The notes: generated by a model not told the origin, from the sequence alone. Positions 10,493 through 16,742 are shown, counted from the stretch's first letter. The stretch: 20,000 bases of DNA from Candidatus Helarchaeota ASGARD archaeon Hel_GB_B (GCA_005191425.1 SUPR01000067.1:1-20000); one strand, 5' to 3'. Made by a program: numbers and translations.

Positions 10493-10612
10493 CTATTTTA
10501 ATTCAATAAATTTCGATCTAGGGGCACCACATTTCGGACATCGATCTGGTGGGCACGTAGATGATTCATCCGAACAGGTCCAACCGCAAACAATACAACG
10601 CCATCTTGCCAT
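10493..10612 (-). CDS. 39-aa rubredoxin-like protein with six Cys (not in ORF track)
   Basis: Translated by hand: MARWRCIVCGWTCSDESSTCPPDRCPKCGAPRSKFIELK*. ATG is at 10612-10610 and TAG at 10495-10493. It has two CxxC knuckles and forms a GC-rich island in AT-rich intergenic DNA. A paralogue lies at 16623. Confidence 0.88.
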   Translation of the reverse strand: MARWRCIVCGWTCSDESSTCPPDRCPKCGAPRSKFIELK

Positions 10613-10750
10613 ATTTATACACACTCATTTATATTTTGTTCACATTTAATTTTATAATATAAATTGTTATTCTCCAATTTTTTATAATTTTAATTTAAAT
10701 TATATACCAAAAAATCGCTTATTTTTATAAAAAAAAATGGTAATTAAAGA

Positions 10751-11983
10751 TTAAAGATATTTTTTTAGGTCCGTATTTGGAAGTAATATTTCGTCTATGA
10801 AGTTAGATACATTTAATTTTTGCTTAATTAAGGTTTGAATTTCCATTGAATTCGTTTTATCTCCTAATAAAATTGCACCGATTAAAATTGATTTATCATC
10901 TTGATTTTCAATTACAATTTTCTTGTAAATTTTATTCTTTGGGTCAGACATTCTTTTTTCGACGATGTTGTTCGGAATTTTTTCAAAATGAATTTTACCT
11001 ATCGATGTTAAGTCAATGTCAGTAATTTTAAGAGTGTTTGAAGGCACAATTTCCTCGTATTTAATTTTTCTATCATTGACCATATTAATTGCCGCTACTT
11101 TTGATTGGGCAAAAGCCACTGGAATAATCCCCCAGACCCTACCATTAAATTCTGCAATATCTCCACAAGCATATATGTTAGGAAAATTAGTTTCCATGTA
11201 TTCATTTACAATTATTCCTCGATTACAATTTATATTGCATTTTTGGGCTAAGTTAATATTTGGCCTGACGCCAGTAGAAATAATGACGCATTGCGCCGGA
11301 ATTTCTTCATTACTTTTTAACCTGACGCCATTAACTTTTTCATTACCGAGGATCTCTTCTACTGATGAATTTAAAAAAATATTAATTCCTTTTTGTTCCA
11401 GAACTTTTTGTAGCAAGGAAGCCCCCTCTATATCTAATTGTCTGGGAAGTAGTCTGGAAAAAAACTCAATAATTGACACATTTTCTATTCTTCTATTAAT
11501 AGAACTTGCAATTTCAATTCCTAAAAGCCCCCCACCAATTACAACAACATTATCAATATTCTTTATTAATGATATTAATTGGTTTGAATCATTTAAACTA
11601 CGTATAGTCATAACATTTTTTTTATCAGAGCCTTTAATTGGGGGCACAAACGAATGACTTCCATTTGCAAGCAGTAATTTATCAAACTTAACTTTTTGCC
11701 CATTTTCTAATTCAATATTTTGTTCATCGATGTGAATATCAATTACTTTATTTGATAAATGTAATTGGATGTTTTTTTCTTTATTATAATAATGCTCATC
11801 TCTTATAAATAAATCTTGAAATTTAATAATCCCGGCAATATATCCAGGTAATTTCGGTCGTGCATAAGTTAAATAATCTTCGTCAGTATAAATTTCAATA
11901 TTTCCTTTTGTGTCTTCACTTCTAATAGTATTTGCAGCATTTACTCCCGCAATACCATTCCCTATGATAACATATTTGGTCAT
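10751..11983 (-). CDS. NAD(P)H/FAD-dependent oxidoreductase, NADH:rubredoxin oxidoreductase-like
   Basis: FAD motif IIGNGIAG, LANGS, NAD motif VVIGGGLLGIE, TGVRPN and IYACGD. It lacks the SFxxC redox Cys of Nox/CoA-disulfide reductases and lies just upstream of a rubredoxin-like gene on the same strand. Confidence 0.8.
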   Translation of the reverse strand: MTKYVIIGNGIAGVNAANTIRSEDTKGNIEIYTDEDYLTYARPKLPGYIAGIIKFQDLFIRDEHYYNKEKNIQLHLSNKVIDIHIDEQNIELENGQKVKFDKLLLANGSHSFVPPIKGSDKKNVMTIRSLNDSNQLISLIKNIDNVVVIGGGLLGIEIASSINRRIENVSIIEFFSRLLPRQLDIEGASLLQKVLEQKGINIFLNSSVEEILGNEKVNGVRLKSNEEIPAQCVIISTGVRPNINLAQKCNINCNRGIIVNEYMETNFPNIYACGDIAEFNGRVWGIIPVAFAQSKVAAINMVNDRKIKYEEIVPSNTLKITDIDLTSIGKIHFEKIPNNIVEKRMSDPKNKIYKKIVIENQDDKSILIGAILLGDKTNSMEIQTLIKQKLNVSNFIDEILLPNTDLKKYL

Positions 11984-12157
11984 TTTAATACATCTTTTAA
12001 TTCTCTAAAAAATGAAAAATCATTTTCAATTTTATTTCCAATTTAAAATTTATTTTTCATCTAAAAATAAATATGGTATAATTTGCAAATACATATTAAA
12101 TATTTAAAGAGAAGTTTAAGTAGTGCGTTCAATTTTTTAATTTAAAAGTGAGAAAAT

Positions 12158-13315
12158 ATGTTAGATTTTAATTTAAGTGAAGAACAATTAAGATTAAAAG
12201 AAAAAGCCAGAAAATTTACTTTAGAAGAAGTTATTCTTGAAATTTCAAAATATGATGAAAAAGAAGAATTTCCGTGGGAGATAGCTGTAAAAGCATTTAA
12301 TAATGGTTTAATGAATGTTAGAATTCCAAAAGAATATGGTGGAAAAGGGCTGGGGCTTCTCGAAGAAATTATTATAATTGAAGAAATTTGTACTGGTTGT
12401 GTTGGATTAGGAACATCATTAAATGTAAATTCTTTAGGTTTTGAGCCTATAATAATAGCAGGAAATAAGGAACAGAAAGAGAAATATCTTAGACCACTTA
12501 CTGAAAAATTATCGTTTATATCTTTTGGTCTTTCTGAAACTGTCGCTGGATCTGATATTGCAGGGATTCAATGTAAAGCGGAAAAAAAGGGAGATAAATA
12601 TATTATAAATGGCTCGAAATTTTGGATTACAAATGCTTGGATTGCCGACACTTTTGTGGTATTTGCCAGAACAAATAATGATAGAAATACAAAAAAGCAT
12701 TTAACAGCATTTATTGTGGAAAAAAATTGGGATGGGGTTAAGGTTAGTCCACCAATGAAAAAGCTGGGTTTAAGGACATCCCCCACTTCGGCTATTCAAT
12801 TTAAAAACGTTGAAGTGCCAATAGAAAATAGGTTGGGTAAAGAAGGAGATGGTTTTCAAATAGCGATGGATACTTTTGCTGCTTCTAGGCCTGTTATTGG
12901 TGCCTTTGGAGTGGGAATTGCAAGAGCTGCATTAAAATATAGTATTGAATATGCTAATAAAAGAAAAGCGTTTACTTTAAATATTTCGAATTTTCAACTA
13001 ATACAGCGAATAATTGCCAGGATGATAACCAAGATTGAGTCCGCAAGATTATTGACATATAAAGCTGCACTGGCAATTGACAAGGGAAAACCAGACATTG
13101 TTCTTTCTGGTTGTGCTAAATTAATTGGAAGTGAAATTGCTATGGATGCTGCGAAAAATGCAATCCAAATTTGGGGTGGTAGAGGATATTTAAGGTCTAA
13201 CCCTGTAGAAAAATTGTTTAGAGATGCAAAAGTATTAGAAATTTATGAAGGGACTACTCAAATACAAGAAATTATAATTGGAAGTTCTGCTCTTAATGGA
13301 CTATATTCATATTAA
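12158..13315 (+). CDS. Acyl-CoA dehydrogenase (short/medium-chain type)
   Basis: FGLSETVAGSD, YIINGSKFWITN, KLGLRTSPT, IQIWGGRGY and EIYEGTTQIQ (catalytic Glu present). Confidence 0.95.
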   Translation: MLDFNLSEEQLRLKEKARKFTLEEVILEISKYDEKEEFPWEIAVKAFNNGLMNVRIPKEYGGKGLGLLEEIIIIEEICTGCVGLGTSLNVNSLGFEPIIIAGNKEQKEKYLRPLTEKLSFISFGLSETVAGSDIAGIQCKAEKKGDKYIINGSKFWITNAWIADTFVVFARTNNDRNTKKHLTAFIVEKNWDGVKVSPPMKKLGLRTSPTSAIQFKNVEVPIENRLGKEGDGFQIAMDTFAASRPVIGAFGVGIARAALKYSIEYANKRKAFTLNISNFQLIQRIIARMITKIESARLLTYKAALAIDKGKPDIVLSGCAKLIGSEIAMDAAKNAIQIWGGRGYLRSNPVEKLFRDAKVLEIYEGTTQIQEIIIGSSALNGLYSY

Positions 13316-15546: not shown

Positions 15547-15566
15547 TTAATTAATACTCCTATTTT

Positions 15567-16346
15567 TTATATTTTTATAAAAGCATTTTTAATTGAATTA
15601 TAATCCAACCCAATTATTCCTAAGTAAAAATCTTTTATCTGTTTAATACCCAAATAAAATTTCCTTGATTTGATAATAAAATGTAAATTTTGGCTTTTTA
15701 ATAAGATTTTACCGATTGAAGTAAGTATTTGTCCCAAATTTAAAATAGTGCGCCTATAATATGGAGAACTAATATATACTTGAAGTTCATAGTCTTTTAA
15801 ATTATTATTTAATTCTGTTTGAATTACATTGTCTTCATAGATATATGATATTGCCAATAATTGCTTGTCCTCAAATAATCTATTTTTTAACTGATTGTCC
15901 AGCTTATAAATTAATTTATTTGGAGTTAACAGATATTTTTTCGAGAAATCTTGAATTTCATTCTTTAATTGTTCAATAAATGGCTCGAAAATTGAAGTAT
16001 TATGGTCCCACTTTATAATAACTTCTTCGGAATATCTTTCTAAAAATTTTGAATTTATTTTATCAAGAAATTTCGATAAGATTTGTAATGGAATTTCTGA
16101 TTCATGAATTGCAATAATATAAAAGGCTGGGTTTTTACAATAATATGATATCGTAAATTTCGATAAATTAATTGACCTAATTTCCCCAAATTCATCTAAT
16201 TCATATGAAAAAGATTTTATTGCTTCTAAAAATGATGAAATTATGTCTGATTTATCTCCTAATCCTATTAATGAAAAAAGGAGAATTCCACCTTGTTTAA
16301 TAAACATTATATCTTTGATTTTTTTAATTTCAAAATCCATTTTCAT
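15567..16346 (-). CDS. Longin-like domain fused to a C-terminal roadblock-like domain
   Basis: The N-terminal ~135 aa fit the Asgard longin pattern (IMFIKQGGILLF…IISSFLEAIKSFSYEL…GEIRSI…KFLERY…W…SIFEPF). The C-terminal part has an alpha/beta roadblock-like periodicity. RBS AAGGA. Confidence 0.65.
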   Translation of the reverse strand: MKMDFEIKKIKDIMFIKQGGILLFSLIGLGDKSDIISSFLEAIKSFSYELDEFGEIRSINLSKFTISYYCKNPAFYIIAIHESEIPLQILSKFLDKINSKFLERYSEEVIIKWDHNTSIFEPFIEQLKNEIQDFSKKYLLTPNKLIYKLDNQLKNRLFEDKQLLAISYIYEDNVIQTELNNNLKDYELQVYISSPYYRRTILNLGQILTSIGKILLKSQNLHFIIKSRKFYLGIKQIKDFYLGIIGLDYNSIKNAFIKI

Positions 16347-16622
16347 GTTCCTTACAAATAAAATTAAACCTAAAAGCTATATTTCTTAGGCCCATTTTAT
16401 TTTTTTAATCTAATTTTGTAAATGAGATTTTAAGTTAAATAAAATTTCATAAAATTCTTGGTCTATAATTATTATTTTTAATTATTTTAATTGTTTTATT
16501 GGTAATTTTAGTATTTGCAATTTTTTCAGGGACTAATAATTTAGCAAATATAGCAAATTAGATAAAAAAATTTTTAAACTAAATACAATAAAAAAGAATC
16601 AAAATAAGGAGAATGATATAAA

Positions 16623-16742
16623 ATGGCTAAATGGCGTTGTAAGATATGCGGGTGGGAATGTGAAGGAGACCTTCCATCATGTCCGCCGGATATTTGTCCA
16701 GAATGTGGTGCTCCGCGCGAAGAATTTGAGAGAATAGATTGA
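16623..16742 (+). CDS. 39-aa rubredoxin-like protein with six Cys (not in ORF track)
   Basis: Translated by hand: MAKWRCKICGWECEGDLPSCPPDICPECGAPREEFERID*. RBS AAGGAG lies upstream. It is identical to the 10493..10612 product at 21/39 positions. Confidence 0.9.
   Translation: MAKWRCKICGWECEGDLPSCPPDICPECGAPREEFERID

Follow-up and report, generated by a model that had tools for sequence, protein, structure and literature searches.

Rubredoxin domains in which the two CxxC knuckles are separated by a short spacer are known from rubrerythrins and from some flavodiiron proteins (FDPs), namely those of classes D and F (PMC6033852). In these enzymes they bind an Fe(Cys)4 centre and supply diiron sites with electrons; as stand-alone proteins they are plentiful in metagenomes and biochemically uncharacterised. 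Also established is the logic of the chain that runs from NAD(P)H through an NAD(P)H:rubredoxin oxidoreductase (NROR) and a rubredoxin to an FDP (summarised in PMC6033852). Here we describe two stand-alone mini-rubredoxins of 39 residues, copies A and B, encoded on a 20,000-nucleotide stretch of the Candidatus Helarchaeota archaeon Hel_GB_B genome (GCA_005191425.1, SUPR01000067.1:1-20000; “the window” hereafter means this whole stretch). Both carry, in addition to the four cysteines of the knuckles, an inner pair, C13 and C20, in an enlarged loop. The best overall explanation, to which we give a probability of roughly one half, is that they are Fe(Cys)4 electron carriers with a reversible, redox-sensitive dithiol/disulfide in this loop.

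The two translations have cysteines at positions 6, 9, 13, 20, 25 and 28 and align without gaps by BLASTP (21 identities over 35 residues, E 2e-17), in agreement with an earlier note on this DNA that had described them as paralogues of equal length with this cysteine pattern. A degenerate DNA pattern built on the six cysteines and the accompanying glycine and proline hallmarks matched the window exactly twice and had no match in 200 dinucleotide-preserving shuffles. Both open reading frames (ORFs) are GC islands (44% and 47.5%) between flanking spacers of 16-23%, in a window of 27.4% GC overall; copy B is a solitary gene within AT-rich spacers of 276 and 270 bp. Since, in addition, the proportion of nonsynonymous differences (pN) lies far below a saturated proportion of synonymous differences (pS) across ten DNA copies of the family, copies A and B are genuine genes. 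An alternative start of copy A is the upstream GTG at position 10624, but the ATG at 10612 is preferred because the N-terminus MA[KR]WRC is common to all relatives.

Both genes had been called unannotated and of a size usually missed by gene callers. This is true of copy A, whose exact protein was absent from the protein collection searched, and not of copy B, whose exact protein is already present in public sets (NCBI, JGI/IMG, ENA and Logan). Public names of the relatives are “rubredoxin-like domain-containing protein” or “rubredoxin” [Candidatus Helarchaeota archaeon]. Whatever the role of the inner pair, copy A is to be added to the gene list of this genome. When four DNA runs were compared with the window, contigs of three of them, which bear hydrothermal vent metagenome labels, had C in place of T at position 10517; this change is synonymous (AGA to AGG, Arg32 of copy A) and, coming from a few contigs of very close strains, adds no weight. 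No difference was listed for copy B in the same runs, and the neighbouring genes differ by about 3-5%.

By profile and predicted fold, both copies are stand-alone short-spaced (rubrerythrin-type) rubredoxins. They score 33.6 (copy A) and 34.1 bits (copy B) against PF21349 (RUBY_RBDX, the rubrerythrin-type short rubredoxin domain), above the gathering threshold of 26.5, which only the rubrerythrin and one other ORF also exceed in their own genome. Models of canonical rubredoxins fall below their cut-offs (PF00301, 12.8 and 14.5 bits against 23; NF045768, 13.8 and 18.5 against 90), as does the RCKP-type rubredoxin-like model NF045720 (20.7 and 28.7 bits against 45). Both CxxC knuckles are present, and the 15-residue spacer between them is longer than the roughly 12 residues by which the short-spaced family is defined; spacers of 13-16 residues occur among other relatives. 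A subfamily profile searched against PDB sequences placed Pyrococcus rubredoxins on top (1yk5, 6.6e-12) and also matched a 39-residue rubredoxin entry (1spw, 3.4e-7), the rubredoxin domain of 4tpu (2.2e-6) and the rubrerythrin domain 1ryt (3e-6). An AlphaFold2 model from an 11-sequence alignment (pLDDT 87.3) is predicted to contain three short strands (residues 3-6, 12-14 and 35-38) and the rubredoxin-knuckle fold. In Foldseek searches it reached TMq values of 0.75-0.79 to rubredoxins and a root-mean-square deviation (rmsd) of 1.8 Å over 38-39 columns to rubrerythrin C-terminal domains, with weak E-values (0.04 or more) that reflect its very small size. The PF21349 scores, the predicted fold and the PDB profile matches thus uphold the suggestion that these are minimal rubredoxin-type proteins.

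What distinguishes the two copies is the inner pair. Within the genome, the domain most closely paralogous to the minis is that at the C-terminus of the window's rubrerythrin. As the earlier note had seen, it has a CxxC-x12-CxxC arrangement without inner cysteines; aligned with both minis, its spacer of 12 residues against their 15 reveals a three-residue insertion bracketed by C13 and C20. In relatives with a 12-residue spacer (x12 relatives), the equivalent positions lie at a distance of four residues, separated by a three-residue E-G-x stretch. We compiled 26 sequences of the six-cysteine form, 22 of them distinct, comprising the ten DNA copies, which came from genomes and metagenome contigs, and 16 further proteins. 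In all 22, W4, R5, C6, C9, G10, C13, C20, P21, P22, C25, P26, C28, A30 and F35 are invariant, and the pair is kept in both paralogue types, the basic-tailed A and the acidic-tailed B. Across the ten DNA copies pS is 0.46-0.92, near saturation, against a pN of 0-0.33; two orthologues encode the same protein over 38 codons at a pS of 0.91, and both TGT and TGC are used at each of the six cysteine positions. Judged from these alignments, the inner pair is maintained by selection, as had been proposed, because it is invariant in 22 distinct sequences while synonymous codons have turned over.

The six-cysteine form is confined to a narrow group. When 400 Asgard genomes were searched with copy B, numerous rubrerythrins, x12 minis and canonical rubredoxins of 45 residues came up, and six-cysteine copies only in the order to which the window belongs (Helarchaeales). 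The six-cysteine DNA pattern occurs in five of the seven Helarchaeales genomes, three of which have two copies, and in none of the 393 other Asgard genomes, and a reversed-pattern control gave 0 matches; one carrier is the published Hel_GB_A “Candidatus Helarchaeota” metagenome-assembled genome. A looser pattern, applied to one genome per species of 185,579 species, yielded no further true member after translation. A scan of metagenomes gave at least two true-member contigs (L184 and L186) among the matches listed, so the census of the family is incomplete. Most loose-pattern DNA matches were rejected after translation, being cysteine-rich junk frames in GC-rich DNA or unrelated cysteine-rich proteins. 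We also noted a recurrent ORF of ~165-257 residues in metagenomes (L152, L169, L219, L237, L262; L116, L228) with a cysteine-rich K-C-R-V-C-G-K-x-C ... C-C-K-P-D-C-P-x-C-G segment, which matched the loose pattern and is unrelated to the minis.

At the protein level, one 39-residue protein with the motif was found among the best 150 matches from a representative library of 1.84 billion proteins, together with 243 domains that have x12 loops without a cysteine in the loop. Many library proteins (P0003-P0024, P0038) contain two to five tandem short-spaced rubredoxin domains joined by low-complexity linkers, and one poly-rubredoxin of 1590 residues has 17 matched stretches; such proteins look uncharacterised. 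Of the 100 clusters nearest in the ESM Atlas, where each match is a cluster of 50 or more members, 43 consist of stand-alone minis of 36-39 residues. A word-index homologue search gave no candidate with a 41-residue read-through of copy B as the query, and two close clusters with the 40-residue Hel_GB_A orthologue. Overall, the pattern search that the earlier note had called for located the motif in Helarchaeales and on at least two metagenome contigs. C13 and C20 are invariant within this six-cysteine clade and missing from broader homologues; at the level of sequence, the pair thus defines one clade rather than the whole family. We found no description of the six-cysteine motif in the literature searched. 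What is new is a clade-specific, strictly conserved elaboration of a mini-protein that is itself known, common and uncharacterised. One six-cysteine mini (P0166, HUX99152.1) is labelled “Candidatus Deferrimicrobium sp.” at NCBI; its contig probably corresponds to G124:C110, which the genome collection assigns to the same Asgard order as the window, and the label is probably a taxonomic mislabel or the result of a mis-binned contig.

The four outer cysteines, C6, C9, C25 and C28, would form two CxxC knuckles that hold one iron in a tetrahedral Fe(Cys)4 centre, and the minis would act as one-electron shuttles from NAD(P)H and NROR to an FDP and possibly to other diiron peroxide or oxygen scavengers. 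On the basis of family membership, predicted fold and gene context, we regard this shuttle role as probable. Copy A is directly preceded on its own strand, at a distance of 138 bp, by an NROR gene, and a class A FDP gene without a rubredoxin domain of its own converges on copy A, with 121 bp tail to tail (Table 1); SUF genes and the rubrerythrin gene are also near. The genes expected of an NROR-rubredoxin-FDP detoxification chain thus flank copy A, which, by analogy, occupies the classical position of the carrier, and the FDP is its likely electron acceptor. No rubredoxin above the PF00301 cut-off was detected in the assembly, which is 93.7% complete, and this, together with the position between NROR and FDP, argues for a carrier function. 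So do arrangements in other Asgard archaea: in 10 other Asgard loci an FDP homologue has a canonical rubredoxin as its neighbour, the NROR homologue of genome G133 precedes an x12 mini of 36 residues, and in genome G127 NROR lies between two minis. In the latter, NROR, an acyl-CoA dehydrogenase family protein (ACAD), a mini and a thioredoxin follow each other on one strand, NROR and ACAD overlapping by 8 nt, and the second mini diverges from NROR.

ACAD is also a neighbour of NROR in the window, and on one metagenome contig (L186:3-890) it is directly upstream of a B-type mini. NROR and a mini-rubredoxin might serve as an electron route for ACAD. The best matches of the window's ACAD are to acryloyl-, cyclohexanecarboxyl- and glutaryl-CoA dehydrogenase models, all below cut-off, and no electron transfer flavoprotein (ETF) genes were identified in the window.

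For the inner pair, the role that we tentatively prefer from the sequence comparisons is that of a reversible intramolecular disulfide/dithiol. The thiols of C13 and C20 would come together where the enlarged loop begins and ends, since the equivalent positions are only four residues apart in the aligned x12 relatives; they would then be separated by a few angstroms and near enough to the iron for electron transfer. The pair could thus staple the loop reversibly, making the carrier sensitive to, or coupled with, a thiol redox system. Such a role would fit the neighbourhood in four sister genomes (G124, G125, G126 and G127), in which a six-cysteine mini opens a two-gene unit whose second member encodes an MJ0307-type thioredoxin with a CPYC or CPHC active site. 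In all four, an HdrD-like protein with two CCG domains is encoded next, in convergent or divergent orientation, and in G125 a glutaredoxin follows NROR. A further pointer to a thiol link is the Methanosarcina acetivorans disulfide reductase 4tpu, where electrons for a thioredoxin-reducing enzyme likewise come from a short rubredoxin domain. Possibly, then, the module of mini, thioredoxin and CCG protein is a rubredoxin-fed disulfide reductase system. In a more far-reaching form of the proposal, the mini would be a minimal converter or relay that combines a one-electron Fe(Cys)4 centre with an adjacent two-electron dithiol/disulfide and connects electron transfer from NAD(P)H and NROR with the reduction of protein disulfides, on the side of which stand the MJ0307-type thioredoxin and the HdrD-like CCG protein of the sister genomes. 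It would then reproduce, in miniature and as a free-standing protein, the combination of metal centre and disulfide on which ferredoxin:thioredoxin reductases are built. From the sequences at hand we consider this form doubtful.

Several observations weigh against a carrier with a redox-active loop. In the predicted model, confidence is lowest in the loop (pLDDT 79 for residues 11-20), and some archaeal FDPs use F420H2 rather than rubredoxin. Neither the thioredoxin nor the CCG protein has a detectable orthologue in the window's own genome, as searched by tblastn and by genome search. Genome G123 has the thioredoxin-CCG pair without a mini, orthologues of the CCG protein occur in all other members of the order, and a module of CCG protein and glutaredoxin is widespread across the class without six-cysteine minis. 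As these CCG orthologues are order-wide and more distant ones beside glutaredoxin are class-wide, the thiol module is older than the six-cysteine mini. The thiol link is hence recurrent within the clade, and neither universal nor necessarily tied to the cysteine pair. Furthermore, all carriers of the motif form one clade, so that the association with this context represents one or few evolutionary events. Finally, canonical rubredoxins coexist with six-cysteine minis in G127 and G124, where they are not beside FDP, NROR or rubrerythrin. A complementary distribution of minis and canonical rubredoxins was rejected because both kinds occur in these two genomes, and the minis are therefore not simple replacements everywhere. 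A structure prediction of a homodimer with three Fe scored 0.01, and a search for sequencing runs that contain this DNA listed none of RNA; neither was used as evidence.

In Lokiarchaeia genomes of family f6 (L303-L315) we observed tandem pairs of HdrD-like CCG paralogues with a glutaredoxin-like gene ~0.7-1 kb away, an arrangement that recurs class-wide. This combination is an uncharacterised thiol-reductase module that is older than the six-cysteine minis.

The rival that survives best, although we think it rather unlikely, keeps the Fe(Cys)4 carriers and makes the pair purely structural, either a permanent staple or packed thiols that replace the aromatic core of longer rubredoxins. The pair would make the enlarged loop more stable, as an organism of warm sediments, for instance, might need, and have no redox or signalling role. 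In keeping with this, C13 aligns with the core residue Y13 of canonical rubredoxins and falls within the predicted strand 12-14, and a single cysteine at position 13 occasionally arises, independently, in x12 relatives that have no partner cysteine (P0062, P0119). Copy A, moreover, stands in an ordinary NROR/FDP context, for which extra chemistry is not needed. However, the pair was gained together with the three-residue insertion and is limited to one order; if it were structural, the strict co-occurrence of both cysteines with the insertion, as well as the repeated adjacency to thioredoxin, would be a coincidence. Nor would one expect permanent disulfides in an anaerobe, whose cytoplasm is reducing.

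It is improbable that the pair provides a second metal or cluster site, with Fe, Zn or an Fe-S cluster bridging two monomers (two cysteines from each) or a mini and a partner, or, as a variant, a ligand-swap set for the primary iron. Six cysteines lie within 23 residues, the exposed C-x6-C loop could give two ligands, and inter-subunit clusters built from two plus two cysteines are known in other proteins. Yet the pair brought no further conserved ligands with it, position 23 being acidic in relatives that lack the pair as well, and all hallmarks of a single-site rubredoxin are kept.

Less probable still is that the minis are redox-inert zinc ribbons with a structural, regulatory or nucleic-acid-binding function, similar, for instance, to RNA polymerase subunit P (RpoP). 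Sequence does not distinguish Fe from Zn, and there are weak matches to zinc-ribbon families and RpoP models (E 0.03-0.9). These are far below cut-offs, and none of the RpoP models PF03604, NF001604 and NF001607 is reached (12.7-14.1 bits against 89-103 for the latter two), whereas the rubredoxin signatures W-R-C-x2-C-G-aromatic and C-P-x-C-G-A-P-x3-F are strong and the NROR, FDP or rubrerythrin context is repeated. An identity with RpoP itself was rejected, the bona fide RpoP being encoded at C107:21336-21440 (31.3 bits against a cut-off of 24). It is very improbable that the pair is a site for As(III) or another metalloid in arsenic chaperones or sensors tied to the nearby ars genes, an idea whose sole basis is the ACR3, ArsR and ArsB/CitMHS-like permease genes of the window and to which a CitMHS permease gene ~2 kb from the G125 copy could be added: the minis are outside the ars transcription units, no ars linkage was seen in G124, G126, G127 or the metagenome contigs, and the permease near the G125 copy is not ArsB by Pfam.

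The coordinates of the features discussed are collected in Table 1. The arsenic-resistance-like cluster (5380-9007) lies between the rubrerythrin and FDP genes. Between 13445 and 16346, genes for a corrinoid-binding protein and an MtaA/UroD-fold protein adjoin those for a longin-like protein and a 110-residue ORF without a Pfam or NCBIfam match, and the region 17676-19063 encodes a SNAP/TPR protein and profilin. Eukaryote-signature genes are thus interleaved with redox genes in the window, and the genome, with profilin and longin-like genes here, is that of an Asgard archaeon.

Table 1. Positions of the mini-rubredoxins, of other genes in the window, and of the mini, thioredoxin and CCG-protein modules in sister genomes.
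Feature	Position	Strand	Description
Mini-rubredoxin copy A	10493..10612	-	39 residues and stop, basic tail; translation, PF21349, GC island
Copy A, codons of putative outer ligands	C6 (10597-10595), C9, C25, C28 (10531-10529)	-	Outer cysteines
Copy A, codons of extra cysteines	C13 (10576-10574), C20 (10555-10553)	-	Inner pair
Mini-rubredoxin copy B	16623..16742	+	39 residues and stop, acidic tail; translation, PF21349, GC island
Copy B, codons of extra cysteines	C13 (16659-16661), C20 (16680-16682)	+	Inner pair
NROR-type flavoprotein	10751..11983	-	Pyr_redox_2 and Rubredoxin_C domain
Class A FDP	9181..10371	+	ODP/metallo-beta-lactamase and flavodoxin, without own rubredoxin domain
Rubrerythrin	4428..5003	-	C-terminal x12 rubredoxin-like domain; NF045767, 309.8 bits against 200
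ACAD	12158..13315	+	Conserved neighbour of NROR and minis
ACR3 arsenite efflux transporter	5380-6471	-	TIGR00832, 283.3 against 282.8, barely above cut-off
ArsR	6647-7039	+	Arsenic-resistance-like cluster
ArsB/CitMHS-type permease	7655-9007	+	Arsenic-resistance-like cluster
Mini, thioredoxin and CCG module, G127	L276:7230-12414 (G127:C11)
Mini, thioredoxin and CCG module, G125	L278:1886-7197 (G125:C252)
Mini, thioredoxin and CCG module, G126	L279:4889-7240 (G126:C198)
Mini, thioredoxin and CCG module, G124	L280:361-1914 (G124:C110)

The locus of copy A offers a well-defined natural example of a stand-alone short-spaced rubredoxin between a presumptive reductase and oxidase. If the inner pair is redox-active, the mini would be the smallest known protein to join an iron centre with a thiol switch, and it would point to a link between oxygen defence and thiol redox control in anaerobic Asgard archaea. 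If the pair is only a staple, the proteins would still be a natural example of how a minimal metalloprotein can be stabilised in a compact form.

Among known systems, the rubrerythrin C-terminal domain (1ryt, 1nnq, 9fj2) shares with the minis two close CxxC knuckles and the Pfam family PF21349, and their predicted structure is within 1.8 Å rmsd of it. They differ from the domains of rubrerythrins and class D/F FDPs in that they stand alone, have a spacer of 15 rather than 12 residues and carry two extra invariant cysteines. The stand-alone x12 RUBY_RBDX proteins of 35-45 residues from metagenomes and other Asgard archaea are of the same size class and family and have the same termini, but have neither the three-residue insertion nor the C13/C20 pair. 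Canonical rubredoxins, which are defined by an inter-knuckle loop of roughly 29 residues and an aromatic core, align with the minis at the termini only. There, those of Pyrococcus abyssi and P. furiosus (1yk5, 1brf) are nearly identical to them, both in the N-terminal MAKWRCxxCG-aromatic stretch and in the C-terminal CPxCGAP-K/R-xxFE-x-I stretch. The minis lack ~14 residues of the loop and the greater part of the aromatic core, and they have an inner cysteine pair that canonical rubredoxins lack; in other Asgard archaea, however, canonical rubredoxins beside NROR or FDP take the same gene position as copy A.

A chain of only 36-39 residues can fold around an Fe(Cys)4 or metal site, as is evident from 1spw (39 residues) and desulforedoxin (36 residues). 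The former is an engineered loop truncation of Desulfovibrio gigas rubredoxin and so, unlike the minis, man-made, and the latter is an obligate dimer with a CC ligand pair; neither has the spare cysteines that the minis have. Finally, the ferredoxin-dependent disulfide reductase of M. acetivorans (4tpu) contains a short rubredoxin module that matches the minis (2.2e-6, rmsd 2.0 Å), and its system reduces thioredoxin-type disulfides, which echoes the mini-thioredoxin-CCG neighbourhood of the sister genomes. In 4tpu this module is fused to a catalytic domain similar to ferredoxin:thioredoxin reductase that has its own Fe-S cluster and active-site disulfide, whereas the mini is a separate protein of 39 residues. 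In the minis, the putative disulfide would sit inside the rubredoxin module itself.

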